This document shows positions 4,081 through 47,430 of a stretch of 64,000 bases of DNA, one piece after another. The stretch is from Candidatus Blackburnbacteria bacterium (GTDB lineage: Bacteria; Patescibacteriota; Microgenomatia; UBA8517; UBA10165): the NCBI GenBank assembly GCA_016183565.1, contig JACPEJ010000001.1, forward strand, positions 226,577-290,576, read 5' to 3'. Positions within the stretch are counted from its first letter, which is position 1. Each line of letters opens with the position of its first letter. The position numbers were made by a program, and so were the translations under genes. The notes below the pieces were generated by a model. The model was not told where the DNA came from and did no database searches. It was given only the letters and a program-made list of their open reading frames with translations.

Positions 4081-4246
4081 ATCCTCTGGACTAGTTGGAG
4101 CTAGTCCGTTTCTTGTCAGCCTGATCTTAGCATTCGTCTTCAGGTACTATTCGTACACGACTCATGCTGCGATCTTGGGCGGACTGCGAAAACTTGTATA
4201 CAAGTTTTCTTGTCTTTTTACGAGAGACACGTTATAATTTAGGAAA

Positions 4247-5486: not shown

Positions 5487-5798
5487 ATGGCAGGAGCTGC
5501 GAGGATTAGAATCCGTTTAAAATCTTACGATCATAGGGTCATTGATGAGGCGGCAGCAAAAATTGTTGATGCTGTTTTGGCTGCTGGTTCTAAAGTAGTG
5601 GGTCCGGTTCCTCTTCCGACAGAAAGACACCTAACTGTTGTTAATACTTCTCCTCATACAGACAAGGATGCGCGTGAGCACTTCGAGATGTTGGTGCACA
5701 AAAGAATGATTGATATAATTCAGCCAACAGAGCGAACAATTGACGCGCTTTCTAATATGGAACTTCCTGCAGGAGTTTCGATTGAAGTTAAAATTTAA
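5487..5798 (+). CDS. rpsJ: 30S ribosomal protein S10
   Basis: [23 protein letters not shown]...[12 protein letters not shown] is a typical S10. Confidence 0.92.
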
Positions 5799-6187
5799 TT
5801 GGTAGCTTTCCTATACACCATCAAACCTTCAATTTTTTCGAAATCTTTTGTATTTAGAGTTGCTAATTCAAGATCATGGCTTAAAGCAGTTGCTGCTATT
5901 ACCGCATCTACAATATTTGTGCCATAAGCTGCTCTTATTCGTCCTGCTTTTTTTGATATTTCCTCGTCCAATTGCAATATTTTTATGCCAGAAAAAAGAG
6001 TTTCAAGAGCAACTCTTGCCTTTTCTATTTCCCAGACACTTTTGCCAGCATAGCTTTCAGTGTGTGCCACAATGGAAGTATATAATTGATATTCTTTCTC
6101 CAGGAGATTATACAAAACGGTCTGACTTTTATCTTTTAGTCGTAGGTAGTCGATAATTATTGAAGAGTCCAGAAGTATTTTGGACAT
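5795..6187 (-). CDS. vapC: PIN-domain toxin VapC
   Basis: [11 protein letters not shown] ... [10 protein letters not shown] ... TLNTKDF shows the PIN acidic residue pattern; 1-nt spacing from the upstream antitoxin gene. Confidence 0.75.
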
Positions 6188-6188
6188 T

Positions 6189-6437
6189 TTACCAATTATA
6201 CCTTTTCGATCTTTCTTCAATTTCAGATCTCATTTTCCTGTAATCTTCGTAGTTTTTTTCTGTAAACCAGTCTGTTTTTAAGTTGATAATCTTTTGGGTA
6301 TAATCTTCAGAAGGCTTTTTTGTGCTAAGTTTTTCTCTGATCACAGCCGAAAGGCTCTTTCTTTTCCTAAAAGCCTCTTCTTTAAGACTTAAATAATCGT
6401 CTTCAGGCAATCTGATATTAGTGGTGATGTAGTTCAT
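6189..6437 (-). CDS. vapB: ribbon-helix-helix antitoxin (VapB/CopG-like)
   Basis: 82 aa; N-terminal TTNIRLPEDDYLSLKEEA is an RHH-type beta strand plus helix; operonic with the PIN toxin. Confidence 0.65.
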   Translation of the reverse strand: MNYITTNIRLPEDDYLSLKEEAFRKRKSLSAVIREKLSTKKPSEDYTQKIINLKTDWFTEKNYEDYRKMRSEIEERSKRYNW

Positions 6438-6660: not shown

Positions 6661-6685
6661 GAGCGCTAGAAGGCGCTCTTTTTTG
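6661..6685 (+). terminator. leader terminator/attenuator hairpin 12 nt upstream of the rplC ATG
   Basis: gagcgc-tagaag-gcgctc stem-loop followed by ttttttg. Confidence 0.5.
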
Positions 6686-6696
6686 TGGAAAAACAT

Positions 6697-7452
6697 ATGC
6701 TAAATACTGTATTGGGAACAAAGCAAGGAATGAAGCAGATTTTTACTCGCGAAGGGGTAAGGTTGTCTGTGACTGTGGTTCAAGGTGGACCGAATGTTGT
6801 CACATATTTACGAACTCAAGACAAGGATGGCTATTGGGCGGTTCAGCTTGGGTTTGGAAGCCGAAGAATGAAAACCATCAAGAAGCCAGTTTTGGGACAT
6901 CTTAAGAAAGGACTTGTCCATACAACTTTGGAAGAACCACAAAAATATCCACGATTCCTCAAAGAAGTTAGAATATTATCCACAGAAGAAACAACATTAC
7001 AACTAGGAGATAGGATCAGTCCTACTGATGTTCTCAAGGCTGGGGATATTGTTCAGGTTACTGGGGTTTCGAAAGGTAAAGGTTTTGCAGGGGGAGTTAA
7101 AAGATGGGGTTTTCACGGTGGGCCGAAGACACATGGACAGTCTGATAGACATAGGGCTCCAGGTTCGATAGGTCAGGCTACAACTCCGGGACGGGTTTAT
7201 AAGGGTAAGAAGATGGCAGGGAGAATGGGGAGTGATCAGAAGACTATTAAAAATCTTGTAGTATTGAGTGTTTTGGAGACGGGTGAGATAGAACTTTCTG
7301 GTCCGGTTCCGGGAAGCAGGGGGTCTTTTTTGCAAATTAAAAAGATTGGAGAGGTAAAGACACCGTACGAGTTAGTTTCCACGAGGAGAGATACAGACAC
7401 AGATACAGAGACAGAGGAAAAGTCGGAAGTTGTAGGAGGGAAGGAGGCTTAA
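6697..7452 (+). CDS. rplC: 50S ribosomal protein L3 (with an acidic TDTDTETEE C-terminal tail)
   Basis: LGTKQGMKQIFTREG...FHGGPKTHGQSDRHRAPGSIG. Confidence 0.93.
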   Translation: MLNTVLGTKQGMKQIFTREGVRLSVTVVQGGPNVVTYLRTQDKDGYWAVQLGFGSRRMKTIKKPVLGHLKKGLVHTTLEEPQKYPRFLKEVRILSTEETTLQLGDRISPTDVLKAGDIVQVTGVSKGKGFAGGVKRWGFHGGPKTHGQSDRHRAPGSIGQATTPGRVYKGKKMAGRMGSDQKTIKNLVVLSVLETGEIELSGPVPGSRGSFLQIKKIGEVKTPYELVSTRRDTDTDTETEEKSEVVGGKEA

Positions 7453-7453
7453 G

Positions 7454-8152
7454 ATGGCAGCTAGGATAAGTAAACAGTCTAAGTCTAAGAGTGAGGCTCG
7501 AGCGAAGGTTCGGAAGGTAGTTTTGGGTCTTGAAGTACCTTTATATGTTAAAGCAGGAGTGCAAGAAGGTACTGTAGAACTGCCAAAGGAAATTTTTGGT
7601 CAGAAACCAAATAAGGTGCTTATTGCTCAGGCAGTGAGGGTTTTTCTGTCACGGCAAAGGATGGCTCGAGCGTCTGTTAAGACTCGCGCACAGGTAGATT
7701 TGACGAAAAAGAAGATGTATCGCCAAAAGGGTACGGGGGGTGCGAGACATGGAGCACAGTCAGCTCCTATATTTGTAGGTGGAGGGAGCGCACATGGTCC
7801 CAAGGCGTTTGAAAATTACAAGTTATTGATATCTAAGAAGATGTCCAGAAAGGCTTTGTTCTCGGCTCTTTCTGAGAGAATGATTGACAAGAGGGTTTTG
7901 GTGGCTGATATAGAAGGGATTGCGCCCAAAACCAGAGATTTGGTGCAGTTTCTTAAGAATGCCCAGATAGATCAAGCACTGATTGTACATAAGGCTAGTG
8001 AGAATCTTTTAAGAGCGGGTAGAAATATAAAGAATATAGCTATTGTTAGGGCCGGGCAATTGAATGCTTATGATGTATTGAGAGGGAGGATGATTGTCTT
8101 GACAAAAGAAGCTTTAGATGTGTTGGCACAGAGGGAGGGCAGGAAAGCGTGA
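7454..8152 (+). CDS. rplD: 50S ribosomal protein L4
   Basis: position between L3 and L23; KGTGGARHGAQSAPIFVGGG motif. Confidence 0.9.
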   Translation: MAARISKQSKSKSEARAKVRKVVLGLEVPLYVKAGVQEGTVELPKEIFGQKPNKVLIAQAVRVFLSRQRMARASVKTRAQVDLTKKKMYRQKGTGGARHGAQSAPIFVGGGSAHGPKAFENYKLLISKKMSRKALFSALSERMIDKRVLVADIEGIAPKTRDLVQFLKNAQIDQALIVHKASENLLRAGRNIKNIAIVRAGQLNAYDVLRGRMIVLTKEALDVLAQREGRKA

Positions 8153-8460
8153 TGTTGAAACCATTGATTACTGAAAAGACATTAAGTGAGGTACAAAGTA
8201 GGAATTGCTACACTTTTTTGGTTTCCGCTCATGTTACTAAGGACCAGATTAGAGAATATGTGGAGGGGATTTTTGGTGTTAAGGTTTTGGGAGTGCATAC
8301 GTCAGTTGTAAGAGGAAAGAAAAAGAGACTAGGTAAAAAGAAAATGTTGGTTTCTAAGAGGGATTTTAAGAAAGTAGTAGTGAGATTACCAGAAAAAGAG
8401 AAGATTGATCTTTTTGAAATTGAAGAAAAGAAAAAAGGCAAGAAAGGGAAAAAATCGTGA
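8149..8460 (+). CDS. rplW: 50S ribosomal protein L23 (Lys-rich C-terminal tail)
   Basis: LKPLITEKT...YTFLVSAHVTKDQIREYVEGIFGVKV. Confidence 0.88.
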   Translation: MMLKPLITEKTLSEVQSRNCYTFLVSAHVTKDQIREYVEGIFGVKVLGVHTSVVRGKKKRLGKKKMLVSKRDFKKVVVRLPEKEKIDLFEIEEKKKGKKGKKS

Positions 8461-9191
8461 GAAAACTTAGAAGAATATTGCCAAAAAATTCAGGTAGGGA
8501 TGCTCAAGGGCGGGTTGCTGTTCGGCACCAAGGTGGAAGGCACAAGAGGTTTTTGCGCGCTGTTGATTTTGCGCGCAGCAAACGTGATATTTTGGGGAAG
8601 GTTGAGAAGATTGAGTATGATCCGAACCGAAATGCCAGAATTGCCCTTATTCTCTATTCTGATGGCGAGCGTTCTTATATACTGGCTCCGAAAGGTTTAG
8701 AAGGTGGTAGCAAAGTTTGTGCAGGGGATGCGGTGTCTATAACAGCAGGTAATGCTTTGCCACTTGGAAGGATTCCTGTAGGTACAACCATACACAATAT
8801 TGAGGTTAAGCCGGGTAAGGGAGGACAGCTTGCCAGGTCGGGATTATCAAGTGCAATTGTGCAGGGTCGAGAAAATGGTACGATTTTGGTAAAATTGCCT
8901 TCTGGGGAAATAAAGAGATTTGATCCTCTTTCCTTAGCCACTATTGGTCAGCCTTCTGGTGGTACTCGCGGGAGAATAGGTAAAGCAGGTAGAAAGAGAA
9001 GAATGGGTGTTCGTCCGACTGTTCGGGGTGTAGCAATGCATCCTGATGCTCATCCTCATGGAGGCGGAGAAGGACGCTCAGGGGAAGGTATGCCACCCAA
9101 GACTCCTTGGGGTAAACCGGCAAGAGGAGTGAAGACAAGAAGGAGAGGGAAGTATTCAGATGGGTTGGTTGTCAAAAGGAGGAAGCAATAG
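8457..9191 (+). CDS. rplB: 50S ribosomal protein L2 (GTG start; ~30 aa shorter at the N-terminus than typical)
   Basis: VRHQGGRHKR...GVAMHPDAHPHGGGEGRS; an in-frame TGA at 8421 prevents N-terminal extension. Confidence 0.9.
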   Translation: MRKLRRILPKNSGRDAQGRVAVRHQGGRHKRFLRAVDFARSKRDILGKVEKIEYDPNRNARIALILYSDGERSYILAPKGLEGGSKVCAGDAVSITAGNALPLGRIPVGTTIHNIEVKPGKGGQLARSGLSSAIVQGRENGTILVKLPSGEIKRFDPLSLATIGQPSGGTRGRIGKAGRKRRMGVRPTVRGVAMHPDAHPHGGGEGRSGEGMPPKTPWGKPARGVKTRRRGKYSDGLVVKRRKQ

Positions 9192-9244
9192 GAAGGTTGT
9201 AGGTGGTAGGTTGTAGTGAGTAGGGGTAGTAGGAGAAAGAAATT

Positions 9245-9517
9245 ATGAGTAGATCTAGTAAAAAAGGACCATTTGTTGATCTGAGGCTGTTGAGCAAAAT
9301 TTTGGCAAAGTCTGATGGGCCTATACGAACTTGGAGTCGAGGTAGTCAGATTGCACCAGAGTTTGTTGGACACAAATTCTTGGTACACAATGGCAAGAAA
9401 TTTATTGAGGTTTTTGTGACGGAGGATATGGTAGGACACTGCTTGGGCGAATTTGCACCAACACGCACTTTTAGGGGTCATGGTCAGATTGTTAAGAGGA
9501 CAATGGAGAAAACATAA
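9245..9517 (+). CDS. rpsS: 30S ribosomal protein S19
   Basis: [11 protein letters not shown]...[34 protein letters not shown]. Confidence 0.93.
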
Positions 9518-9522
9518 GCTCT

Positions 9523-9885
9523 ATGTTAATAAAAGCAGAACAAAAATACATAAGGATGAGTCCACGCAAGATAAGGTTAGTGGTAGATTCTGTGCGGGGT
9601 ATTAAGTTGCCTCAGCAGGTTTTGCTTTATCTTGAGCATGTTAACAAGAGGGCGGCAGGAGTGGTCTCGAAGTTAATCAAACAGGCGATTGCGAATGCTA
9701 CCAACAACCTAAGTTTGCCAGCTGATAAGCTCACGATTAAAGAGTTGCAGGTGGGTGGTGGGCCTGTGTATAAAAGAGGACAACCTGTGTCTCGTGGCCG
9801 CTTTCACCCTGTTTTAAAGCGTACTAGCCATGTGAGGATAGTTCTTGAATCTAAAGAGAGAGGAGGGAAAAACGGGAAACGTTAA
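9523..9885 (+). CDS. rplV: 50S ribosomal protein L22
   Basis: IRMSPRKIRLVVDSVRG; position in the cluster. Confidence 0.9.
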   Translation: MLIKAEQKYIRMSPRKIRLVVDSVRGIKLPQQVLLYLEHVNKRAAGVVSKLIKQAIANATNNLSLPADKLTIKELQVGGGPVYKRGQPVSRGRFHPVLKRTSHVRIVLESKERGGKNGKR

Positions 9886-9941
9886 ACGCAAAACGGCAGA
9901 CGAGAAATGTTAAACGTTTCGCGTTTTGCGTATCACATTGT

Positions 9942-10604
9942 ATGGGTCAAAAGGTTAATCCAGTAAATTTTAGAATTGGCGTTTCAAACACTTGGAAGTC
10001 TCGGTGGTTTGCAGAGAGAGGTGAATATAGGAAGTTTTTATTCGAGGATATTTTGTTAAGGCGATCTCTTGAGGAGAAATTGAAACTTGCTGGAGTTTGC
10101 AGTGTTGACATTGAGCGTTTGCCAAAGGCGATGACGATTAGGTTGTTAGTGTCTCGCCCCGGTATTGTTATTGGTAGAGGAGGATCGGGTATTGAGGATG
10201 TTAAAAAATTTGTAGTTGAAAAGTTAGGTTTTACACCCAAGAGCCCAAAACTTTCTAAGATTGAGATTATTGTGGAAGAAGTGAAAAATTCGGATTTGTC
10301 AGCACGATTGGTGGCGCAGAGGATTACTGGTGAACTGGAGCGTAGGATGCCACATCGTCGTGTTGTGACAAAGATTATGGAAAGAGTAATGGCAGCAGGG
10401 GCGAAGGGTATAAGAATATCTCTTGCTGGTAGAATTGGGGGGGCAGACATTGCAAGGTCGGAGAAATTTCAGGTTGGTTCGGTTCCGACACAGAGTTTGC
10501 GGGCAGATATTGATTATGCGCAGGCGCAGGCTCTTTTGAAAAAGGGATATGTTGGAATAAAGGTTTGGGTTTATAAAGGGCAGGAGGAAAATCATGCAGC
10601 CTAA
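9942..10604 (+). CDS. rpsC: 30S ribosomal protein S3
   Basis: MGQKVNPVNFRIGV..., KH domain. Confidence 0.93.
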   Translation: MGQKVNPVNFRIGVSNTWKSRWFAERGEYRKFLFEDILLRRSLEEKLKLAGVCSVDIERLPKAMTIRLLVSRPGIVIGRGGSGIEDVKKFVVEKLGFTPKSPKLSKIEIIVEEVKNSDLSARLVAQRITGELERRMPHRRVVTKIMERVMAAGAKGIRISLAGRIGGADIARSEKFQVGSVPTQSLRADIDYAQAQALLKKGYVGIKVWVYKGQEENHAA

Positions 10605-10998
10605 GAATCAAAAACACAGAAAAGAGTTTAGAGGTAGACGAAGAGGGAAATCTATTCGTGGATCGAATGTTGATTTTGGAGAGTATGGTCTTAAAAGTTT
10701 AGGACGTGGTTGGCTTAGTAGTAAACAGATAGAGGCAGCTCGTCGTGCCATTGCTCATGCTGTTTTACGGGGAGGAAAAATTTGGATTAGAGTTTTTCCT
10801 GCAAAGCCTGTTACCGGGCGTGCTGCTGGGGTTAGGATGGGGGGAGGTAAAGGAGATGTTCAAAAGTATGTTGCGGTTGTAACTCCTGGCAGAATACTTT
10901 TTGAAATAGCAGGGGTAAGTGAGGAGTTGGCTCGTGAGGCATTTGGAAAGGCGTCTTCGAAACTACCTTTTCCAACTAAAATTATACATAGAGGGTGA
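10594..10998 (+). CDS. rplP: 50S ribosomal protein L16
   Basis: RMGGGKGDVQKYVAVVTPGRILFEI. Confidence 0.9.
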   Translation: MQPKNQKHRKEFRGRRRGKSIRGSNVDFGEYGLKSLGRGWLSSKQIEAARRAIAHAVLRGGKIWIRVFPAKPVTGRAAGVRMGGGKGDVQKYVAVVTPGRILFEIAGVSEELAREAFGKASSKLPFPTKIIHRG

Positions 10999-11020
10999 TT
11001 ATTTTTGAAAGGAGTAAGGT

Positions 11021-11230
11021 ATGAAAAGAAGTGAATTTAAAACATTAAAAGAAAAGACGCATGATGAGTTGGCACAGATGGTAAGGATAAAACAATTGGA
11101 GATCTCAAAAGCGAGGATGGAGTTTTTGGTTGGGAAAGTTAAGAATGTACGTTTGGTTAAGAACTTACGGCATGGTTTGGCAAGGGTAAAAACTTTGATG
11201 CGAGAAAAAGAAAGGGAGGAACAAGAATGA
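11021..11230 (+). CDS. rpmC: 50S ribosomal protein L29
   Basis: 69-aa helical protein between L16 and S17; ELAQMVRIKQLEISKARME. Confidence 0.8.
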   Translation: MKRSEFKTLKEKTHDELAQMVRIKQLEISKARMEFLVGKVKNVRLVKNLRHGLARVKTLMREKEREEQE

Positions 11231-11532
11231 AAGTTTTTATAGGAAAAGTAAAAAGCGTGAGTTTGACAAAAACTGTAATTGTGGAAGTTGAGCGTTTTCG
11301 TGTTCATCCAATCTACGAGAAACGCACAAGAAGCACAAAGAGATATCCTGTACATGATGAGATAGGTGTAAAAGAGCGCGATGTGGTGGAGTTTAAAGAG
11401 ACAAGGCCTATATCAAAGACCAAGAGGTGGATGATAACACGAGTGTTGGGGAAGAGAAAAGAGGAAGAACGGGAAACGTTAAACGCAAAACGACAGATGG
11501 GAAACAAACGCAAAGTTGCCACTTCGCGGTAA
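11227..11532 (+). CDS. rpsQ: 30S ribosomal protein S17 (C-terminal extension encoded by a repeat element)
   Basis: GKVKSVSLTKTVIVEVERFRVHPIYEKR. Confidence 0.88.
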   Translation: MKVFIGKVKSVSLTKTVIVEVERFRVHPIYEKRTRSTKRYPVHDEIGVKERDVVEFKETRPISKTKRWMITRVLGKRKEEERETLNAKRQMGNKRKVATSR

Positions 11533-11568
11533 AACGTTGTACGTCTCGCGTTTCTCGTATCACGATCT

Positions 11569-11934
11569 ATGATACAAATAGAATCGGTTTTAAGACTAGC
11601 GGATAATACAGGTGCTAAAGCAATAAGAGTGATTGGCATACCTGGTTCTAATAAAAGAATTGCAACTATTGGAGATGTTGTTAGTGCAGTTGTTGATCGT
11701 GCTGATCCAAATGGTGTTGTGAAGGATAGTGAGAAGGTGAAGGCTGTAATAGTTCGGACCAAAAAAGAATGTAGACGTGTGGATGGGAGCTATGTAAGAT
11801 TTGATGATAATGCGGCTGTTATTATTGATAACCAGAAAAACCCTCGTGGTACACGAATTTTTGGACCTATCGCTCGAGAAGTTAGGGAAGCTGGATTTGC
11901 AAGGATTGCTTCTTTAGCACAGGAGGTGGTATAA
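11569..11934 (+). CDS. rplN: 50S ribosomal protein L14
   Basis: [17 protein letters not shown]... Confidence 0.93.
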
Positions 11935-12047
11935 CCACGCTTCGCGTGGAATTTTCCCGCCTGCTATCGCCTAGCAGCGAAGCAATTGGCGGGCAGGCAA
12001 TTTTCAATGAGCAATTTTCAATTAAAAACAAACAAAAAGGAGAGTAA

Positions 12048-12353
12048 ATGAAGTTACATATAGGTGATGAAGTTTTAGTGACAGCTGGGAAAGATAAAGG
12101 GAGACGTGGGAAAATTGAGCACGTTTTTCCTAAAAAGGACCGAGTTGTTGTGCCAGGAGTTAATGTTTACAAGAGGCACAGGAAGGGTATGGGTGGTGAA
12201 AAGGGAGGGGTAAGCGAGTTTTCTCGCCCTCTTTTTGTTGCCAGTGTGGCGTTTTTTTGTACTTCTTGTAATAAACCTACACGGATTGTGTATGAGGTAG
12301 CCAAGACTGGAGAGAAGACGAGGGTGTGTGCTAAGTGTAGGAGAGAAATTTGA
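12048..12353 (+). CDS. rplX: 50S ribosomal protein L24 (KOW domain plus a C-terminal CxxC...CxxC zinc-ribbon tail)
   Basis: MKLHIGDEVLVTAGKDKGRRGKI; C-terminal CTSC...CAKC. Confidence 0.85.
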   Translation: MKLHIGDEVLVTAGKDKGRRGKIEHVFPKKDRVVVPGVNVYKRHRKGMGGEKGGVSEFSRPLFVASVAFFCTSCNKPTRIVYEVAKTGEKTRVCAKCRREI

Positions 12354-12377
12354 TATTTAATATTTGTTTTATCTACC

Positions 12378-12935
12378 ATGGTTGCACTATTAGAAAAATA
12401 CCAGACTGATGTTAGACCCAAACTTGTTAAAGAGTTAGGTTTAAGTAATACTATGGCTGCTCCTTTGGTTGAGAAGGTTGTTTTGAATATGGGTATTGGG
12501 GATTTGAAAGATAACAAGGAAGAACAAGATAGATTAATTAGTGATCTTGCGAGTATTGTGGGACAGAAACCTTCTTTGAGGAAGACGCGTAAATCTATTG
12601 CTGGTTTTAATATTCGGCAAGGGCAAGTAGTTGGAGTTGTGGTAACTGTGCGCGGGGGCAGAATGTATGACTTTTTGCAGAAACTTTTTAATATTGTTTT
12701 GCCAAGATTGCGCGACTTTAGAGGAGTATCGGGAGGTTGCTTTGACAAAGAGGGTAATTATACGTTAGGCTTGCCAGAGCATACAGTTTTTCCTGAGATA
12801 GATTTGGGGAAGGTTGGTAGGGCTAGGGGTTTGGAAGTAACTATAGTTACTAATACTCATGACAAAGAGAAAAGTAGACGGTTGTTGGAGGAGTTGGGGA
12901 TGCCTTTTGAGAAAGGGGAAAGGGGGAAGGGTTAA
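12378..12935 (+). CDS. rplE: 50S ribosomal protein L5
   Basis: VVLNMGIGD...; position in the cluster. Confidence 0.92.
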
Positions 12936-12958
12936 GGGTAAAGAACCTAACGAATATT

Positions 12959-13144
12959 ATGGCAAAAACAGCAAAAGTTGTAAGAGAGACAAAAAAACTT
13001 AAGTTTGAAGGGCGCTATCGCAATCGGTGTCAAAGGTGCGGCCGGCCTCGTGGGTTTATACGAAGATTCGGTCTTTGCAGACTTTGCTTTAGGGAATTTG
13101 CATCTCAAGGCCAGATTCCAGGCGTAAGGAAGGCATCTTGGTAA
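12959..13144 (+). CDS. rpsZ: 30S ribosomal protein S14 type Z (zinc-binding)
   Basis: 61 aa, [23 protein letters not shown]. Confidence 0.92.
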
Positions 13145-13251
13145 AAAAAGTAAATGTATCAAATGTATCAGAGAAATATCAGAGGAATCAAAAAGATTAA
13201 TAAAGGAAGGAGAGCAGCGAGTTTAGCCGGAGGCCAAGCTTTGCTTGCGAG

Positions 13252-13282
13252 CGTCGAGAGGAAACCTTGGTGTCCTCTCGAG
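13252..13282 (+). promoter_or_regulatory. perfect 10-bp-stem hairpin immediately upstream of the rpsH start
   Basis: ctcgagagga-aaccttggtg-tcctctcgag. Confidence 0.4.
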
Positions 13283-13289
13283 ATTAAGT

Positions 13290-13670
13290 ATGGTTACTGA
13301 TCCAGTAGGAGACTTTCTAACACAAATAAAGAATGCAGCTTATAGAAAAGTGGTGGAGGTTTGTGTGCCTTACTCAAAAATGAAGGATAGTATTGCGCAG
13401 GTACTTAAGGGGGAAGGATATCTTACTGACGTTGTGAAAGAGGATAATCGGTTGCGTGTTGTGCTTACATTTAGAAGGCGTCGTGCGATTATTTCAGATA
13501 TTAAAAACGTATCACGTCCAGGTTTGCGTATTTACAGACCAACAAAGAGATTACCTTCACCCTTAGGAGGGGCTGGTATTTCTATTATTTCAACCTCGAA
13601 GGGGGTTATGTCTAACAGGGAAGCAAAAAGGCTTGGGTTGGGTGGAGAAGTGCTAGGGGAGGTGTGGTAA
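13290..13670 (+). CDS. rpsH: 30S ribosomal protein S8
   Basis: MVTDPVGDFLTQIKNA... Confidence 0.92.
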   Translation: MVTDPVGDFLTQIKNAAYRKVVEVCVPYSKMKDSIAQVLKGEGYLTDVVKEDNRLRVVLTFRRRRAIISDIKNVSRPGLRIYRPTKRLPSPLGGAGISIISTSKGVMSNREAKRLGLGGEVLGEVW

Positions 13671-14215
13671 TGAGTAAGATAGGGAAAAAACCGTTAATAA
13701 TACCAGAAGGTGTCACTCTTCAAAAAGAGGGAAGGATGCTTAGGGTTTTGGGACCTAAAGGTGAGTTGTCGTTTAATCTTCCTGTGGGTGTAGAAGTGGT
13801 TATTAAAGACGATACTGTGAATATTGTGCAGACAGACGGTGATACGACTCGATTGGTTGGCCTTTATGGAAGGCTTATTGCGAATGCTATAGTGGGTGTT
13901 GTAGAAGGGTGGACTAAGACTTTAGAACTTATAGGAACTGGTTATCGTGCGCGATTGGAAGGGAACGATCTTGTTTTAGCTCTTGGTTTTTCTCATCCTA
14001 TTCGGATTACAGCACCTGCTGGTGTAAGTTTTTCTGTGGAGGAGAATAGGATTAAAGTTTTGGGAAGCAATCGAGAAGTGGTTGGGCAGATAGCGGCCAA
14101 TATTCGAATGATGAGGCCACCTGAGCCTTATCAGGGTAAGGGGGTAAGGTATCAGAATGAGTATGTTCGCAGGAAGGCAGGTAAGTCGGCTAAAACGGGA
14201 GCTAAGGCGGCGTAA
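13670..14215 (+). CDS. rplF: 50S ribosomal protein L6
   Basis: [15 protein letters not shown]; TAATG overlap with rpsH. Confidence 0.92.
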
Positions 14216-14237
14216 AGCTCTTTTGGGGAGAGGATAT

Positions 14238-14570
14238 ATGAATAAAGCAAAAAGGGAGAAACAAGTTAAAAGAGTAAGGGCAAAACTAAGGCATGCGACA
14301 CGGCCAAGGCTGTCTGTGTTTGTGTCAAATAAACATATTTATGCGCAGATAATTGATGACCACAAAGGGGAAACAATTGTGTCGGTTAGTGATGTTGGAA
14401 TGGAGAGTAGTAAGAACATTAAAGTGGCTCAAAAAATTGGAGAACTTATAGCTGTTAAGGCGAAGGAAAAGAAAGTAAAAGAAGTAGTTTTTGATAGGGG
14501 TGGGAAGAAATATCATGGTAGAGTTAAGGTTCTTGCGGAAAGCGCAAGAGAGCATGGGTTAGTTTTTTAA
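14238..14570 (+). CDS. rplR: 50S ribosomal protein L18
   Basis: [30 protein letters not shown]. Confidence 0.9.
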
Positions 14571-14572
14571 AC

Positions 14573-15034
14573 ATGGAAAGAGATTTTCAAGAGACAGTAA
14601 TAGAAATAAATAGAATTTCTAAAAAAACGAAAGGTGGAAATCAAATAAGGTTTTCGGCCCTTGTAGTTGTGGGAGACAAGAAAGGTGGAGTGGGTGTTGG
14701 TTTGAGTAAGGCACCGAATGTTGTTTCTGCTATTAGGAAGGCAATTACTCAGGCAAGGAAGAATATGGTTAAAATACCACTCAAGGGAACAACCATACCT
14801 TTTAGTGTGCGAGTAAAGTATGGGGCTGCTAGGGTGATGCTTAAACCAGCAAGACCTGGTTCGGGTGTTGTTGCCGGAGGGCCACTCCGAGCTGTTTTTG
14901 AGTCAGCGGGGGTAAAAGATATTGTTGCCAAGATTTTGGGAACTAACAATAAAACAAGCAATTTATATGCAACCATTGAGGCGGTAAGAATGCTTAATGG
15001 TCTTTTGGAAGTACAAAAGGAGGTAGTATTGTGA
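14573..15034 (+). CDS. rpsE: 30S ribosomal protein S5
   Basis: VVGDKKGGVGVGLSKAPNVVSAIRKA. Confidence 0.93.
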   Translation: MERDFQETVIEINRISKKTKGGNQIRFSALVVVGDKKGGVGVGLSKAPNVVSAIRKAITQARKNMVKIPLKGTTIPFSVRVKYGAARVMLKPARPGSGVVAGGPLRAVFESAGVKDIVAKILGTNNKTSNLYATIEAVRMLNGLLEVQKEVVL

Positions 15035-15480
15035 TTAGTATTGGAAATTTGCCACCAGTAAAACAGAAGACAAAGAAGCGATTAGGTCGTGGGTATGGAA
15101 GTGGCAAGGGTGGTCATACAGCAAGTCGTGGTCAAAAAGGGCAAAAAAGTCGAAGTAAAATTCACCCACTTTTTGAAGGAACGAAGAACAAAAAGTCTCT
15201 TATCCAGCGTTTGCCTTTACTTAGAGGGAAAGGTAAATTGAAACCTTCTGTTTCTCGTCCGTTTGTGGTGGAGGTTGGTAAGCTTAATGTTTTTGCGGAG
15301 GGTAGTGTTGTGGATGTTGATGTTCTTGTTGCAAAAGGTGTTTTGCCTAAAGAGGCGAAAAATGCTGGTGTAAAGATATTGAGTAATGGTAAACTGGAAA
15401 AGAAGTTAACGGTAAATTTGCCGGTAACTCGTGGTGCAGCCTCACAAATTAAGGCTCTAGGAGGAGTTATTCAAGAATGA
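15031..15480 (+). CDS. rplO: 50S ribosomal protein L15
   Basis: [27 protein letters not shown]. Confidence 0.9.
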
Positions 15481-16757
15481 GGGCGGTTTCGAACCTTCTT
15501 CGCGCATGGTCTATACCTGAACTTCGTAGGAAACTTATTTTTACCGGAGTTATCTTTGTTATTTTTCGCTTGGTTGCACATATTCCGGCTTCTGGAATTG
15601 ACCGAGAGGCTTTACGGTTGTTATTTGCACAGAGTCAATTTTTGTCCTTGTTGGATATTTTTTCGGGAGGGACTCTTGCAAACTTTTCTATTTTGGCCCT
15701 TGGCCTTAATCCTTATATTAATGCTTCCATAATCTTGCAGCTTTTAACGTTGGTTTTTCCTCAACTTGAGGAATTATCAAAAGAAGGAGAAGCTGGGCGG
15801 GCAAAAATCAATCAATATACGAGGTTTTTGACTGTTCCCCTTGCTGCGCTTCAGTCGATTGGTATGTATTTCTTGCTTAATAGTCAGAATGTTGTTTCGT
15901 CTTTAGGTGTTGTTCCTTTGGTTGTTTTGATGGTAACAATGACTGCAGGAACGGTTTTTGTAGTTTGGTTGGGAGAGCTTATTACGGAGTATGGAATAGG
16001 GAATGGTATATCTATTCTTATTTTTGCCGGCATTGTTGGTAGGTTGCCTGTAGTTTTCAGTCAAACTTTTTTGACGGTGACTGCTCAAGATCTTTTTCCG
16101 ATAATAACTTTTGCTCTTGTTTCAGTAATTGTGATAGCAGGTGTTGTTTTTATGAATGAAGCGACAAGGCGTATTCCAGTTCAGTATGCTAGGCGTGCTA
16201 GCCGAGGTGGTGTGGTTGCACAACAAACTCACTTGCCATTGCGCCTTAATCAGGCTGGTGTCATTCCAATTATTTTTGCAATCTCTCTTGTTTTGGCTCC
16301 TTCTATGTTTGGTCAATTTTTGTCACGTGTTCCGAATCCTAATATTTCTTGGTTTGCTTCCAATTTGTCCAGCTGGTTTAGTCCTGGTTCTGTTGTTTAT
16401 AATGTTGTCTACTTTTTGTTGGTTGTTGGTTTTACTTTCTTCTACACAGCTTTTATTTTCAATCCTACAAAGATTGCAGATGAGATTAAAAAGCACGGGG
16501 GATTTGTTCCAGGTATAAGGCCGGGTGGGGCAACCAGTCACTATTTAAATTTTGTTTTGAATAGGATAACTTTGGTTGGTGCTTTGTTTTTGGGGTTGAT
16601 TGCAGTACTTCCTTCTGTTGTTCAGTCTTTTACTCAAGTTGCTGCGTTAGCAATTGGTGGTACTGGAATTTTAATAGTTGTCTCGGTTGTATTAGAAACT
16701 ACGAAGAAAATTGAGGCTCAGTTGGCAATGCGGAACTACGATAAATTTCTTACTTAA
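15477..16757 (+). CDS. secY: preprotein translocase SecY
   Basis: 426 aa, 10 TM helices, follows rplO. Confidence 0.93.
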
Positions 16758-17321: not shown

Positions 17322-17490
17322 AGCGGGGCCTGTCGCGCGCTCGTCCTCGGTCCGTATGTCCTCACTAGCGCTGCGGTCGCTCGACGGGACTCCTCGTTCG
17401 AGTCTGAGCCGATTCGGCCTGAGCTCACGGTCGAAGGACCTGAGGGCTCATCCCTCAGAGTCGAAGACCTCCCATACTGACACCCGCCTT
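17322..17490 (+). repeat. GC-rich structured repeat element, copy 1 (intergenic, ends in a T-run)
   Basis: ~165 nt at >60% GC in a ~40% GC genome; a near-identical copy lies at 49946-50078 inside recJ; internal palindromes (ctgagggctcatccctcag). Confidence 0.8.
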
Positions 17491-20308: not shown

Positions 20309-21265
20309 TTGGGTAAAACAAATCAGAATTTCTCTTCAACTTCGTATAAACCGTTATTGTTTCAATTAGAACAAAAAGAAACACAAGAAACCTACGGTGA
20401 ATTTGTAATAGAACCTTTGGAACAAGGATATGGGCACACATTGGGTACTTCTTTGCGTCGAGTTTTGCTAACTGGTCTTTCTGGTGCGGCAATAACACAG
20501 GTTAAAATTGTTGGCATGAAGCATCAATTTGGTCCTGTAAAGGGTGTAAAAGAAGATGGGGTGGATTTACTACTTAATCTTAAGAAGATTAGGGTTTCTT
20601 ATTCAGGCGAGAAGCCTGTTAAACTTACACTCTCTGCGAAAGGAAAGGGTCAGGTTTTAGCAGGAGATATAAAAACACCAGCTGATGTTCAGATAGCGAA
20701 TCCAGATTTTGTTATTGCGACTTTGGCAGATGATAAAAGCAAGCTTGAATTAGAGCTTCAAGTAGAATCCGGTGTTGGCTACTCTCCTTCGGAGGATCGT
20801 AAGACTAATATGGTTGGACAGATTCCATTAGATGCTGACTTTTCGCCACTACGTCGTGTGAATTACAAAGTTGAAGAAACACGAGTTGGGCGTCTTACGA
20901 ATTATGATAAGTTGACTTTGCAGGTGTGGACGGATGGTTCAGTGAATGCTTCAGATGCTGTTAAAAAAGCGTCTGAAATACTGTTAGGTTATTTTAACCA
21001 TCTTGTTTCTCCTGTGGTTAAAAATAGTTCTGCTGTAAAAACTAAAAATTTGGAAACTTCAGTAACAAGTAAGTTTTCAGTTGAAGAGCTAAGTCTTCCT
21101 ACAAGGATTGTAAATGCTTTGATTGGAGCTTCGTATGAAACAGTTGAAGATATTGTTCGTTCGAACAAGACAGAACTTGCCAAGATCAGAAATTTGGGAG
21201 AAAAGTCAGTTAAAATAATAGAAGCAGCTCTTGGAGAAAAAGGTATTTCTTGGAAAGGAGAGTAG
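20309..21265 (+). CDS. rpoA: DNA-directed RNA polymerase subunit alpha (TTG start, strong SD taaggaggtg)
   Basis: EPLEQGYGHTLGTSLRRVLL; 318 aa with a C-terminal domain. Confidence 0.92.
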   Translation: MGKTNQNFSSTSYKPLLFQLEQKETQETYGEFVIEPLEQGYGHTLGTSLRRVLLTGLSGAAITQVKIVGMKHQFGPVKGVKEDGVDLLLNLKKIRVSYSGEKPVKLTLSAKGKGQVLAGDIKTPADVQIANPDFVIATLADDKSKLELELQVESGVGYSPSEDRKTNMVGQIPLDADFSPLRRVNYKVEETRVGRLTNYDKLTLQVWTDGSVNASDAVKKASEILLGYFNHLVSPVVKNSSAVKTKNLETSVTSKFSVEELSLPTRIVNALIGASYETVEDIVRSNKTELAKIRNLGEKSVKIIEAALGEKGISWKGE

Positions 21266-30765: not shown

Positions 30766-31737
30766 ATGTCAATAGGCAACAAGAAACTACTTGTAATTTG
30801 TGGCCCAACAGCAACAGGTAAAACAAATCTTGGTATCTATCTTGCAAAAAAGCTTAATGGCGAAATAATTTCTGCTGACTCTAGACAGGTTTATCGTGGT
30901 CTTGATATTGCTACAGGGAAAGATATATCCGAGAATTTCAAATTTCAAATATCAAATATCAAATATCAGAATGAAGAAATTGGTTATTGGGAAACTGACG
31001 ATGGGGTAAGAGTATGGTTAGTAGATGTGGTTGATTCTACAGCGAACTTTAGTGTTGCTACTTACCGGGGGCTTGCTAGTCTTGTAGTAGAGGATGTGTA
31101 CGGACGTGGCAAACTTCCTATTGTAGTTGGGGGTACAGGCTTGTATATAAGGGCTTTGGTTGATGGGATTGATACCATTGGTGTTCCGCCGAATCCGACT
31201 CTACGAGCATTATATGGGAGGAAAACTTCGGAGGAGCTTTATGATGTTCTGTTTCACTTGGTTCCAGACACAATAATTGGTCTTAGTTTTTCTGAAAGAA
31301 AGAATAAACAGAGGCTTATAAGAAGGATAGAAATTGCACAATCTAACAGGAAGAAAATTAGTGTTTGCTCACCGGACTGGGATGTTCTTTTTGTTGGTTT
31401 GACTGCACAGTGTGGGTTTTTACAGAAACGGATAGAAAAACGAATTGATCAGTGGGTGACTGAGGGGGTTCGGGAGGAAGTGGCAACTCTTTTGGATAAG
31501 GGGGTAAGTTGGGAGGGTCAGGCGATGAGTTCTTTGGGGTATCGTCAATGGAAGCCGTATTTTGAGAAGAAAGCAACGGTGCAAGAGGTTGTCGAGAGGT
31601 GGAAGAAAGAAGAGTGGCAGTATGCAAGACGTCAGCTTACTTGGTTTAAAAAAGACGAAAGGGTTAGGTGGTTTGATGTTAGCAGTGATGGTTGGAGGTC
31701 TGAGGTGGAAAAGTTGGTCTCAGGTTGGTACAATTGA
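30766..31737 (+). CDS. miaA: tRNA dimethylallyltransferase
   Basis: LLVICGPTATGKT...ISADSRQVYRGLDIATGK. Confidence 0.88.
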   Translation: MSIGNKKLLVICGPTATGKTNLGIYLAKKLNGEIISADSRQVYRGLDIATGKDISENFKFQISNIKYQNEEIGYWETDDGVRVWLVDVVDSTANFSVATYRGLASLVVEDVYGRGKLPIVVGGTGLYIRALVDGIDTIGVPPNPTLRALYGRKTSEELYDVLFHLVPDTIIGLSFSERKNKQRLIRRIEIAQSNRKKISVCSPDWDVLFVGLTAQCGFLQKRIEKRIDQWVTEGVREEVATLLDKGVSWEGQAMSSLGYRQWKPYFEKKATVQEVVERWKKEEWQYARRQLTWFKKDERVRWFDVSSDGWRSEVEKLVSGWYN

Positions 31738-31809
31738 CGTAACAGATCATTCCCTTCGGGAATGGAAAACAAATCAGAATTTGTCTTCAACTGCGTATAA
31801 AAATGTAGT

Positions 31810-32886: not shown

Positions 32887-33334
32887 ACTAGGAATGAGTA
32901 AGCCAGGTTCTGTTTCCGCTAGTTGGCGGAGGCGATAATCTATCTAACGCCCTCAAACTTTGATGCTTCCGGAAGCTGGTAATAGCCTGCCTAGACTTAA
33001 TGTCTTAGCAGGGCTGGCGCATCGTTCGGAGGTTGCAGCGGGGAGGATTGCCTCTTTTCACCCTCTGCCCTGTTAGCTTTAGGCTAACGAGATGAGTCGT
33101 TGTCTCTGTGGCTCTAACTGGCGGTTTGCCTTCGACTATTTCGACAAACTCAGTACAAGTTCGCTCAGGCAACCCTGAGCTTGCCGAAGGGTTCCCGCCT
33201 CGGCTTACGCCGAGCACCCTGCTTCCTGCTGCCTGGACTTTCCTCCCCGCCATTCGCTTCCCACTTGGCTTTGGGTTCTATTCGAACGCGCCTCGTGGTG
33301 CGCTTCGGCGGGGTAATCGCCCTGTTTCCTAGGT
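32886..33334 (-). ncRNA. rnpB: RNase P RNA (bacterial type; ~449 nt)
   Basis: on the minus strand: GGAGGAAAGTCCAGGC (5' strand of P4) ... AGGGTGAAA ... ACAGAACCTGGCTTAC (3' strand of P4), with compensatory A:U in P4; P1 pairing cctaggaa/ttcctag; terminator follows. Confidence 0.8.
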
Positions 33335-35415: not shown

Positions 35416-35985
35416 GTGCAACTTTCTTTAAGTCGAACATTGGGACAGATGAGGCTTGTTTTAAAGGACCCAGAAAGTGTTGGGCCTTTCACTGTTTATG
35501 AGGTTTTTCGCGATGATTCGGATGGTTGGGCAAACAAGACTGTAATTTATCCTGGTAAGTTGGGTGAGGAATATACAAAGACGTTTGGACATTATCATCC
35601 GGAGGGTGCGCCGGATGAAGTATATCGTGTGATTGAAGGGGAAGGTATTCTGGAGCTTCAGAAAAAACATTTGGGGAATGATCAATTGGTTTCTTTCCAG
35701 GTAGACGAAGTTTTATTGATAAAAGCCAAATCAGGGGATGAGATTGTTATTACCCCAGAATATGGTCATTCGTGGTCTAATGTAGGTAGTACTCCTTTGA
35801 TTCTTCTTGATGATTGGGAGGTTGGTCATACAGGAGCTGATTATGAGCAGATTGGGAAATTTCATGGTATGGCTTACTATCTTGTAGAACTAAACGGTGG
35901 GCCTAGAGCTTTTCCTAACCCAAATTACGAGAATCTTCCGGAGCCTGTTTTTTTGACAGCAAAGGAGTTTAAAAGACCCTCCTGA
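35416..35985 (+). CDS. cupin-type glucose-6-phosphate isomerase-like protein (cPGI family)
   Basis: TFGHYHPEGAPDEVYRVIEGEG and EYGHSW are consistent with the His/Glu metal site of cupin PGIs; start codon uncertain. Confidence 0.5.
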   Translation: MQLSLSRTLGQMRLVLKDPESVGPFTVYEVFRDDSDGWANKTVIYPGKLGEEYTKTFGHYHPEGAPDEVYRVIEGEGILELQKKHLGNDQLVSFQVDEVLLIKAKSGDEIVITPEYGHSWSNVGSTPLILLDDWEVGHTGADYEQIGKFHGMAYYLVELNGGPRAFPNPNYENLPEPVFLTAKEFKRPS

Positions 35986-36052
35986 TCTTACCATTCGCCT
36001 TCAGGTACTATTCGTACACGGCTCATGGAGCGATCTTAGGAGGGCAAGGGAG

Positions 36053-40297: not shown

Positions 40298-40428
40298 TTA
40301 GAGGTTATTATAACCGACCCAATAAAAGATTTTTTCTTTTAGAAGAAATCTCTTCAACTACGTATAGCACGGAGTACAATTGGTTATATGAGTTTGTATA
40401 GCAAACGATTATATTATATCATCAACCA

Positions 40429-45581: not shown

Positions 45582-46450
45582 ACTGGATGAAGTTTCGCTG
45601 GTTTTATTTTTTGGTTTCAGGAATTGTGTTGGCTTTTTCTGTATATGCAATAGCTACCTGGGGTTTTCGCCCCTCAATAGATTTTACTGGGGGGAGTGTA
45701 GTGGAATACAGATTTCAGGGTCGTGTTGAAGCATCAAAAGTATCGGAAGATATTGTAGCGCAAGGTTATGAACTAAAGGAAGTTAAGAGTATAAGTGCTA
45801 ATAGTTTAGAACTGAAATTTGTGCCAACCTTTGAGCAAAGGAATGCGGAGGATTTAAGTGCAATTCTTGCTCAATCTTTAAAAGAAAAACCTGAGATTGT
45901 AAGATTTGAGACTGTTGGTCCGGCCTTGTCTACAGAGATTCTTGAAAAAACATATATAGCAATAGCAATTGCGGCAACAGGAATTCTTCTTTGGGTTGCG
46001 TGGCAATTTAAAAGTATTCAGTTCGGGATTTCTGCGATTCTTGCGACGCTACACGATACGATAATTTTGCTTGGTGTGTTTGCAGTACTTGGGCACTACA
46101 AGGGTGTTGAGGTTGATATACTTTTTGTTACAGCAGTTTTAACAACTTTGTCCTTCTCGGTTCACGATACTATTGTTGTCTATGATCGAATCCGAGAGTC
46201 GAAAAGAAGATTTAGTAGTGTTTCTTTTGTAGATCTTTCTAATAAAGCGGTCACAGAGACAATGGGTCGTTCGCTTAACAATTCTTTGACTATTATTTTC
46301 ATGCTTCTGGCGCTTTTTTTGATGGGAGGAGTAACTATAAAATGGTTTGTTGCAGCACTTCTTGTTGGTACAATATCAGGTACTTACTCATCTCCATTTG
46401 TCGCAGTCCCGCTTTTGGTGATGTGGGATTGGATTAGAGGTAGGTTCTAG
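45578..46450 (+). CDS. secF: protein translocase subunit SecF
   Basis: 290 aa, SecF topology; overlaps secD by 4 nt. Confidence 0.88.
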   Translation: MNWMKFRWFYFLVSGIVLAFSVYAIATWGFRPSIDFTGGSVVEYRFQGRVEASKVSEDIVAQGYELKEVKSISANSLELKFVPTFEQRNAEDLSAILAQSLKEKPEIVRFETVGPALSTEILEKTYIAIAIAATGILLWVAWQFKSIQFGISAILATLHDTIILLGVFAVLGHYKGVEVDILFVTAVLTTLSFSVHDTIVVYDRIRESKRRFSSVSFVDLSNKAVTETMGRSLNNSLTIIFMLLALFLMGGVTIKWFVAALLVGTISGTYSSPFVAVPLLVMWDWIRGRF

Positions 46451-46551
46451 TGGAGCTTCATTGGAAATTATTTTACAGTATACAAGCTTTGAATAAGGCT
46501 ACTTGACAAAGGCTCTTGGTTGTAGTAGTGTATATACATTGTATATATTAG

Positions 46552-47319: not shown

Positions 47320-47430
47320 CAATGGTTTGTTGCAGCACTTCTTGTTGGTACAGTGTCAGGTACTTACTCATCTCCATTTGTCGCAGTCCCGCTTTTGGTG
47401 ATGTGGGAGAAAATTAAGAGGAGGGTTTAG
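47320..47430 (+). pseudogene. duplicated 3'-terminal fragment of secF (~110 nt, 2 mismatches over the first 92 nt)
   Basis: aatggtttgttgcagcacttcttgttggtaca...gtcccgcttttggtgatgtggga also occurs at 46331-46440 as the genuine secF end. Confidence 0.85.

Follow-up and report, generated by a model that had tools for sequence, protein, structure and literature searches.

Two related elements at gene junctions of the S10-spc cluster

What do long palindromic sequences do between ribosomal protein genes whose start codons have no Shine-Dalgarno (SD) sequence, and where do they come from? This question is raised by a 64-kb stretch of DNA from an uncultured Candidatus Blackburnbacteria bacterium of the Microgenomates (contig JACPEJ010000001.1; the whole stretch is called the window below), in which the S10-spc ribosomal protein cluster runs from L3 to SecY on the plus strand (6685-16757). 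Two junctions of this cluster, L22/S3 and S17/L14, are occupied by similar sequences, element 1 and element 2, each of which supplies the upstream gene's stop codon and abuts the ATG of the downstream gene. From their sequences it is well supported that the elements are paralogous copies of one intercistronic spacer. It is equally well supported that tandem copies of a 7-nt unit, NNAAACG, together with their inverted complement, CGTTTNN, gave rise to this spacer, and that the result is an imperfect palindrome. A role in coupling the translation of S3 and L14 to that of the genes before them is plausible.

L22 (9523-9885) ends in ...GGKNGKR with its TAA at 9883-9885, and the ATG of S3 follows at 9942 after a gap of 56 nt. 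S17 (11227-11532) ends in ...EERETLNAKRQMGNKRKVATSR with its TAA at 11530-11532, and the ATG of L14 lies at 11569 after a gap of 36 nt. The Pfam domains stop at residue 109 of 120 in L22 and at residue 71 of 101 in S17, so the translated parts of the elements are C-terminal tails. Both elements are transcribed within the S10-spc polycistronic mRNA, and nearly all genes over tens of kb around them are on the plus strand. In three Logan assemblies of this organism, looked at for variation within the population, both elements were identical.

Element 1 (9868-9944, plus strand) spans the end of L22 to the ATG of S3. Directly 5' of it, in the last L22 codons, lies an SD-like GGAGG (9862-9866; predicted anti-SD duplex -12.2 kcal/mol), and relatives have the same GGAGG ahead of their L22 stop. 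The 5' arm (9868-9895) consists of the heptads AAAAACG GGAAACG TTAAACG CAAAACG and holds the L22 tail and its TAA. The central loop (9896-9909; GCAGACG AGAAATG) includes an out-of-frame AUG at 9907, and the 3' arm (9910-9930; TTAAACG TTTCGCG TTTTGCG) complements the 5' arm in two alternative registers. The 3' tail TATCACATTGT and the S3 start codon (9942-9944) make up the rest (9931-9944), which is without an SD and continues in heptads, TATCACA TTGTATG, so that the element parses into 7-nt units throughout.

Element 2 (11463-11571, plus strand) spans the end of S17 to the ATG of L14, and directly 5' of it there is a weak SD-like GAGG within the S17 coding sequence (11461-11464; -5.9 kcal/mol). 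Its 5' module (11463-11504) contains 33 nt identical to element 1 and is translated in another frame as the C-terminal extension of S17. The insert specific to element 2 (11505-11532), which corresponds to a 30-nt gap in element 1, holds a small hairpin, CGCAAAGTTGCCACTTCGCG (11509-11528), and the S17 TAA. The 3' module (11533-11571) is made of the heptads CGTTGTA CGTCTCG CGTTTCT CGTATCA CGATCTA and ends in the L14 ATG (11569-11571). Mini-ORFs (open reading frames) are found in both elements. A frame of 19 codons begins in element 1 at the AUG of position 9907 and runs 22 nt into S3, and in element 2 a UUG-initiated frame of 11 codons (11537-11572) terminates at the TGA of an ancestral ATGA overlap with L14. 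These frames could be a relay for reinitiation, or they could be due to chance.

The preliminary description of this DNA had proposed that the two junctions are related through a shared 5' and a shared 3' module, and this was borne out. The 24-nt 5' module ACGGGAAACGTTAAACGCAAAACG had exactly two matches in the window with up to three mismatches allowed, where shuffled sequences gave an expectation of 0.00, and the search for further copies returned only elements 1 and 2. The run of 33 identical nucleotides is followed by a 30-nt segment exclusive to element 2. The 3' modules are about 75% identical and run up to the ATG; for the module CGCGTTTYYCGTATCAC there were two matches at 0-1 mismatch, where 0.22 were expected, and taken alone this is weaker evidence. 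Column identity over the whole alignment was 79%. The placement of the modules also stood, as the 3' module ends at the ATG of S3 (9942) and of L14 (11569) and the 5' module encodes the end of L22 (...NGKR) and an S17 extension of about 22 residues. One correction concerns the reading frames: L22 reads AAC GGG AAA CGT TAA and S17 reads CGG GAA ACG TTA AAC, and the L22 stop triplet, TAA, does not fall in the S17 frame. Since the shared module is read in different frames, its similarity and any action it has would lie at the nucleotide level.

The 33-nt identity of the 5' parts against about 25% divergence of the 3' parts is suggestive of recent partial gene conversion, or of selection on the 5' half, with about 50 placements being possible. 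Programmed frameshifting was considered and rejected by inspection. The slippery-like GGGAAAC and GTTAAAC are present, but neither is in X XXY YYZ register in the L22 frame; GTTAAAC is in register in S17 (ACG TTA AAC), but a -1 shift there misses the L14 frame.

Heptad periodicity in the window and in other ribosomal operons

A strong 7-nt periodicity, not mentioned in the preliminary description, runs through both elements. Autocorrelation at lag 7 gave z = 6.5 for element 1 (z = 5.4 at lag 14) and z = 4.8 for element 2, where lag 14 was also high and the 3' half by itself gave a lag-7 z of 4.2. Coding controls had no lag-7 signal (z = -1.6 and -0.3). When the window was scanned with a sliding segment, lag 7 had the heaviest tail among lags that are not multiples of 3, and four of the ten top peaks were S10-spc junctions. 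No lag-7 z of 2.5 or above was found in 39 intergenic segments outside the cluster (9.8 kb of the window). The periodicity is thus confined, among the intergenic DNA of the window, to S10-spc junctions, which argues against a genome-wide mutational quirk.

Other heptad arrays were located with Tandem Repeats Finder on the plus strand of the same cluster. The L2/S19 spacer, of the same class as the two elements, has a direct array of AGGTGGT x5.3 (9194-9229), in which TAG occurs about every 7 nt, and therefore a stop in more than one reading frame. An array of GAAAGGG x4.7 between the end of L5 and S14 spans the L5 stop (12911-12943). The L14/L24 spacer carries CAATTTT x3.7 (11998-12023) with GC-rich hairpins upstream (11935-11997); this 113-nt spacer starts with these hairpins (CCACGC-TTCG-GCGTGG, then CCCGCCTGC...GGCGGGCAGG) in AT-rich surroundings.

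For comparison we used 53 loci of the Candidate Phyla Radiation (CPR), namely 43 operons from GTDB representatives and 10 from the nearest S3 relatives; three-digit labels such as L004, L014 and L048 denote these operon loci and not proteins. Period 7 was the modal intergenic tandem period in this set: the 39.7 kb of intergenic DNA contained 41 such arrays and the 350 kb of coding sequence 21, and the intergenic arrays at periods 8, 9, 10 and 11 numbered 19, 17, 10 and 24. High lag-7 values were obtained for L048 (z = 6.3), L004 (z = 4.7) and two junctions of L015 (z = 4.0 and 6.0). A direct array followed by its complement, an arrangement that yields long hairpins, was found in L030, in L036 (with imperfect pairing) and in the L22/S3 spacers of L033 and L042.

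Copying of spacers within an operon was also common, as 18 of 50 loci had at least one pair of similar spacers, at varied junction pairs. L010 has two copies with 96-97% identity at L23/L2 and S17/L14. Three copies are present in L036 and likewise in L038, nine in L040 and twelve in L046, there at 12 of about 14 junctions, the full-length ones (about 100 nt) reaching from stop to ATG and three being shorter and partial. The recurring spacers of L046, L040, L036, L038 and L010 are 70-110 nt long and 77-99% identical within one genome. L015 has repeated spacers at the same junction pair as the window (L22/S3 and S17/L14), and L014 weakly so, but the junction pairs varied across the 18 loci and a special link between these two junctions was rejected. 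No description of repeated heptad-periodic spacers in CPR ribosomal operons was found in the searchable literature, and the class is apparently undescribed so far. The best description of elements 1 and 2 is that they belong to this broader class of heptad-periodic spacers copied within CPR ribosomal operons, as a case with two copies that form hairpins.

Heptamer repeats occur in other bacteria, and the STRR heptamers of cyanobacteria are intergenic tandem repeats of this kind. Among published systems the TAACTGA repeats of Beggiatoaceae, cyanobacteria and Bacteroidetes come closest. They stand in for SDs upstream of genes, those for ribosomal proteins among them; each CspB protein binds one heptamer, and a translational role of the repeats has been proposed and is unproven (PMC4679880). 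The elements studied here resemble the TAACTGA repeats in having period 7, in lying directly upstream of SD-less starts and in carrying stop codons inside the unit. They differ in that the units are lineage-specific (NNAAACG/CGTTTNN, AGGTGGT, GAAAGGG and CAATTTT here), which also sets them apart from STRR. The heptads of elements 1 and 2 are moreover few and degenerate, with a direct array turning into its inverted complement and hence a hairpin, and the arrays in the window are confined to one operon, whereas TAACTGA repeats occupy 169 sites genome-wide.

By analogy, a single-strand RNA-binding protein with a footprint of about 7 nt (a cold-shock-domain or S1-like OB fold) might read a copied leader module and so equalise the initiation of ribosomal proteins. 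The modal period of 7 in the 53 loci, the operon-specific signal in the window and the recurrence of one module from stop to start at many junctions are consistent with such a factor, as is the similar proposal for Beggiatoaceae (PMC4679880). On the other hand, the units are fully different between lineages (AAAAACG, TTTCGAA, AATTTTC, GAAAGGG, AGGTGGT), so there is no common recognition sequence; the heptads of elements 1 and 2 are largely base-paired in the predicted fold, and no candidate protein was identified. We regard this explanation as improbable.

Origin of the elements

The closest other S3 relative (locus L048) has 74% identity, and no S3 relative between 74% and 100% identity was found among 5.8 billion proteins. 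In most Microgenomates L22 and S3 overlap by 17 nt (ATGggacaaaaagtTAA) or are separated by 1-6 nt, and S17 and L14 share an ATGA overlap; GGAGG lies within the last codons of the upstream gene at these junctions. Element 1 is recognisable only in L048 (ggaggagaaacgaaaaacgaaaaacgttTGAcgtatcacgttttacgttttgcgtaccatcATG) and L004 (ggaggttaaacgtTAAacgtttaacggtttacccacATG), with a fragment, TAAcgtatca, retained at the L22/S3 junction of L051; the palindromes are 20, 30 and 56 nt long. L048 and L004 have the same heptad unit as element 1, and palindromic symmetry is kept despite the differing lengths. In other Blackburnbacteria the genes overlap by 17 nt, are 6 nt apart or are separated by unrelated inserts of 75-113 nt. 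The L22/S3 palindrome is therefore old in this family, with homologues in two or three Blackburnbacteria relatives, although its length changes. That relatives carry shorter orthologues at this very site points to growth in place rather than to insertion, and it is well supported by this comparison that element 1 grew in the Blackburnbacteria lineage at a junction where L22 and S3 originally overlapped or abutted.

Element 2 had no counterpart in 50-odd related operons; in the nearest relatives the two genes overlap by ATGA or have 18 nt or less between them. As an ATGA overlap or a short spacer is found at S17/L14 in all relatives, element 2 is the derived state. The well supported reading is that it is a later copy of element 1, made in this genome only, in a former ATGA overlap of S17 and L14, by which the S17 stop would have been moved and about 22 residues added; the ancestral ATGA motif is still present in its 3' module. 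The preliminary description had called the junction conserved, and had held that absence of the element from close relatives would suggest a recent neutral duplication. Such absence was found for element 2 and in part for element 1, and "conserved regulatory junction" is an overstatement; the observation itself is real and statistically solid.

In L049 (2640-2752) and L052 (2888-3000) the SD region is repeated directly on both sides of a 113-nt L22/S3 insert (GAAAGGAGA ... GAAAGGAGA). This repeat resembles a target-site duplication, and its downstream copy is the proximal SD.

Small palindromic repeats such as REP/BIME, Correia/NEMIS and RUP are co-transcribed in operons, and Rickettsia palindromic elements insert in frame into genes. 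Elements 1 and 2 are like them in being imperfect palindromes of tens of nucleotides with more than one copy between operon genes, and in that element 2 is partly translated as a protein extension. Terminal inverted repeats like those of REPs and of MITEs (miniature inverted-repeat transposable elements) exist as the pairing arms. There was no target-site duplication, as the flanks of element 1 (GGGAAAA|...|ATTGT) and of element 2 (GGAAGA|...|GATCT) share no direct repeat. Two copies were seen in the window, both in one operon, and no transposase was linked to them, the ORFs of the window not having been scanned systematically for transposases.

RNA structure and translation starts

S3 and L14 lack an SD sequence, as had been stated before: complementarity to the anti-SD in positions -25 to -1 was 0 kcal/mol. 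About 13 of the 22 cluster genes have values of -6 to -12 kcal/mol, and L5, S14, Adk and Map also lack an SD.

Element 1 folded on the sense strand with -22.1 kcal/mol (z = -2.2), and with -21.1 kcal/mol in the alternative register that contains the perfect 10-bp repeat; its folding energy had no strand preference. The arms pair over about 18 bp in element 1 and with mismatches in element 2, giving an interrupted helix of about 18-20 bp. The hairpin acgcaaaacg/cgttttgcgt that had been described for both elements is a perfect 10-bp inverted repeat in element 1, but the 3' arm of element 2 reads cgtttctcgt. Folding thus agreed with the earlier proposal in that both elements are hairpin-capable, but the sense structure was only modestly better than shuffles and element 2 folded better as antisense.

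The 5' arm of the element 1 stem (9869-9885) is L22 coding sequence and stop, and the 3' arm (9910-9931) is S3 leader. The same layout, a stem joining the end of the upstream ORF to the downstream leader, was also found in L004, L014, L015, L028 and L048. The upstream stop lies within the 5' arm or loop of the hairpin in element 1, L004, L014 (both junctions), L015, L021, L028 and L048, and in L004 a 9-bp stem has the stop codon as its loop. Stems were stronger than in shuffles at both L014 junctions (z = -5.3 and -7.4), in L015 (z = -3.9), in L028 (z = -3.5) and, in the same comparison, in element 1 (z = -2.8). The two L014 hairpins share their 5' arm, and their 3' arms differ by changes between G.U and Watson-Crick pairs that keep the sense-strand pairing. 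Over 188 operon spacers the sense strand folded better than the antisense in 112 against 59 cases (p = 2e-5), base composition being uncontrolled.

These features are compatible with a coupling hairpin, in which the SD-less leader of a gene is paired with the translated end of the gene before it, and translation of L22 or S17 opens the hairpin. When the upstream gene is not translated, the leader would be held in the stem. A ribosome finishing L22 or S17 would melt or occupy the 5' arm and so free the pyrimidine-rich leader and its AUG, and S3 or L14 would then be started by a new 30S subunit or by the terminating ribosome itself. In element 1 a ribosome at the stop (9883-9885) would cover the mRNA to about 9900, while a 30S subunit at the AUG (9942) needs about 9922-9957, so the two would not clash. 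Synthesis of S3 and L14 would in this way be tied 1:1 to the upstream gene despite the gaps of 56 and 36 nt. Coupling had been suggested in the preliminary description; the hairpins, the placement of stop and ATG and the geometry are compatible with it, but a role in translation is only plausible, and we consider the model quite possible, and the best of the mechanisms weighed here, while stopping short of calling it probable.

Coupling through RNA unfolding operates in E. coli rpmI-rplT at a stop-start spacing of +52 nt, and translational coupling without an SD has been documented (PMC12548453). As in rpmI-rplT, phage f1 gene VII-IX and MS2 coat-lysis, the stem here joins the upstream ORF end and the downstream leader, and +56 and +36 compare with +52 in leaving an upstream ribosome room to open it without occluding the start (PMC12548453). 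The known stems, however, hide a recognisable SD or start, whereas the present junctions lack a proximal SD and their helix stops 11-14 nt short of the AUG. Elements 1 and 2 are also unlike them in being heptad-built, duplicated within the operon and known from sequence alone.

A second way to serve S3 and L14 would be a split ribosome binding site, in which the upstream SD is still used and the hairpin loops out the insert, as in T4 genes 38/25, where an SD upstream of an intercistronic hairpin is brought within reach of its AUG over an otherwise too long interval (PMC3014915). The layout is present, with GGAGG at 9862-9866, GAGG at 11461-11464 and no SD near either AUG. GGAGG stands directly 5' of the hairpin in element 1, L004, L014 (both junctions), L015, L021, L028 and L048, again with none near the AUG. 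With the hairpins formed, the path between SD and AUG would be about 5-18 nt instead of 31-104 nt, which can be compared with 22 to 5 nt and 27 to 11 nt in T4 (PMC3014915). The T4 distances of 5-11 nt are backed by mutagenesis, whereas the distances here are no better than in shuffles, and the inserts are 3-5 times longer. We calculated effective SD-AUG distances from minimum free energy structures and Boltzmann samples and compared them with dinucleotide shuffles. The ensemble distance was 14.8 nt for element 1 and 5.1 nt for element 2 against an average of 13-15 nt for shuffled inserts; shuffles did as well or better in 60% (element 1) and 7% (element 2) of cases, and over the inserts the fraction at or below the observed distance was 0.06-0.74. 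As the shuffles match the observed distances, this test gives no support for specific selection. Moreover, the effective spacing of about 15-18 nt in element 1 is beyond the usual optimum, the SD of element 2 is weak, and the SD position is fully accounted for by the ancestral GGAGG-N8-stop-ATG arrangement of tight junctions. Upstream and proximal SDs were not complementary in occurrence over 159 spacers (Fisher p = 0.10 in the wrong direction, in a set made noisy by some missed small genes). A split site for S3 and L14 has no specific support, and we think it distinctly unlikely; the coupling model fits the anatomy of the elements better.

Several observations weigh against the coupling model. 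Element 2 folded on the sense strand with -27.6 kcal/mol, which was not significant (z = -1.2), and its antisense, gaining G.U pairs from three A.C mismatches, folded better (-36.0 kcal/mol, z = -4.1). Its stem is degraded relative to element 1, with uncompensated changes in the 3' arm while the 5' arms are identical. A nine-copy spacer family of L046 had no compensatory covariation, only one-sided G.U changes. As the closed hairpin ends 11-14 nt ahead of the AUG, masking of the start codon is not evident; an SD that could be unmasked is missing, and the model leaves unexplained how the freed leader recruits a ribosome. The L22/S3 junction is extremely variable among relatives, as expected for a dispensable spacer, and the copy counts cover the 64-kb window, about 9% of the genome, which limits statements on dispersal.

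The same degraded stem and lack of covariation, together with the rapid turnover of the junctions among relatives and the absence of element 2 elsewhere, are to be expected if the elements are a neutral or selfish by-product. Heptad slippage and template switching would then have made a palindromic microsatellite at the only permissive site, between stop and start, and ectopic gene conversion or a MITE-like event a second copy in the operon. Both would merely be tolerated, S3 and L14 using the SD-independent route that serves L5, S14, Adk and Map. The lack of an SD in several other cluster genes and the lack of association between proximal and upstream SDs in the 159 spacers fit this explanation. 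So does another palindromic repeat of the genome, with one copy in a spacer and an in-frame copy within RecJ, which indicates that small repeats do spread here, and so does a 35-nt heptad array inside miaA. Weighing against it are the confinement of heptad periodicity in the window to S10-spc junctions and its absence from the 9.8 kb of other intergenic DNA, and the small size and compactness of CPR genomes, in which nevertheless the same spacer of about 100 nt stands at up to 12 of about 14 junctions of one operon. The palindromic symmetry kept in element 1, L048 and L004 despite length changes, the sense-strand folding bias of the 188 spacers and the lack of a target-site duplication around elements 1 and 2 also speak against it. 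Such an origin without function is in our view possible, though on the unlikely side.

RNA processing and autoregulation had also been suggested as roles. REP-type hairpins in operons stabilise upstream mRNA, and elements 1 and 2, with their interrupted helix of about 18-20 bp, might act as an RNase III-type site or as a barrier to 3' exonucleases that segments the mRNA and tunes half-lives. The homologues in L004 and L014, however, have 9-bp stems only, too short for RNase III, and the sense strand has no U-tract or terminator-like site at either element. A processing site found no support, and we hold it to be very improbable. Nothing spoke for autoregulation either: Rfam gave no match at gathering thresholds in the whole window, and at E <= 10 only three chance-level matches in 9700-12150 (best 17-22 bits against thresholds of 39-94). 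No sigma-70-type promoter (-35/-10 with 16-18 nt spacing) overlapped 9860-9944 or 11455-11571 on the plus strand, and the total of promoter-like sites was not above shuffles. A metagenome scan with the degenerate pattern AAACG..AAAACG..CGTTTYKCGTA (not the exact module) returned 120 loci, all of them unrelated terminator-like hairpins and none beside a ribosomal gene.

An action on the minus strand or in DNA, as an antisense terminator or as a DNA hairpin recognised by a recombinase, would fit the better antisense fold of element 2 (-36.0 against -27.6 kcal/mol; z = -4.1 against -1.2), in which the three plus-strand A.C mismatches are G.U pairs. On the minus strand only, the insert of element 2 was also scored as terminator-like, a hairpin with a T-run. 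Yet no minus-strand gene or promoter reads into the region, element 1 has no energy preference, the agreement of three of three sites has p = 0.125, and related spacers favour the sense strand overall. This possibility is hardly credible.

A cell needs its ribosomal proteins in equal amounts, which textbook bacteria secure by gene overlaps, tuned SDs and autoregulatory leaders. In CPR bacteria the genome is tiny and known regulators are few. A broader proposal is that CPR ribosomal operons carry undescribed, operon-specific 7-nt-periodic intercistronic modules that are copied between junctions and replace SD-led overlap coupling by a shared leader; in this general form we consider it unlikely. 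Either the terminating ribosome or an RNA protein that binds heptads would possibly read the leader, ribosomal proteins would be kept equimolar, and copies would range from two here, in the hairpin version, to 12 of about 14 junctions in L046. If copied heptad spacers do couple or standardise initiation, they are a new answer to the stoichiometry problem, and a phylum-wide survey could easily search for them as a new signature. If they are junk, the finding keeps its interest, since the most highly expressed and compact operon of a streamlined genome would tolerate and repeatedly gain palindromic microsatellites of 50-100 nt, by which even an essential protein like S17 is lengthened. In both cases, annotators of such junctions should be prepared for starts without an SD and for artificial C-terminal extensions.

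Other genes and repeats in the window

The ribosomal cluster is interrupted between S10 and L3, at 5795-6437 on the minus strand, by a gene for a PIN-domain toxin (141 aa) and an 82-aa ORF that overlaps it and is probably the antitoxin. At 14573-15480 S5 and L15 are direct neighbours with no L30 gene in between, which is usual in CPR bacteria.

A GC-rich palindromic element of about 135-165 nt with GCGGG...CCCGC termini is present at 17323-17487 and 49949-50084 (about 90% identity) and had no Rfam match. One copy lies in the adk/map spacer, and the other is within RecJ, in frame and without stops between the DHH and DHHA1 domains, much like the Rickettsia palindromic elements. In the miaA (IPP transferase) ORF a heptamer array, (AATATCA)x5 (30934-30968, 96% matches), leaves the frame unbroken.

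A 36-nt repeat, AAAACAAATCAGAATTT(C/G)TCTTCAACT(T/G)CGTATAAA, is found at 20315-20350, 31766-31801 and 40349-40366, the first two being 94% identical. It stands at the rpoA start and just upstream of two other ORFs, and may be a shared leader or promoter motif. A family of 63-nt repeats has members at 4120-4182 (the fusA/tuf spacer), 35981-36043 and 33251-33313, of which the first two are 89% identical. Finally, a 142-nt direct repeat occurs at 46341-46482 and 47321-47462, the copies being 82% identical and 980 nt apart.

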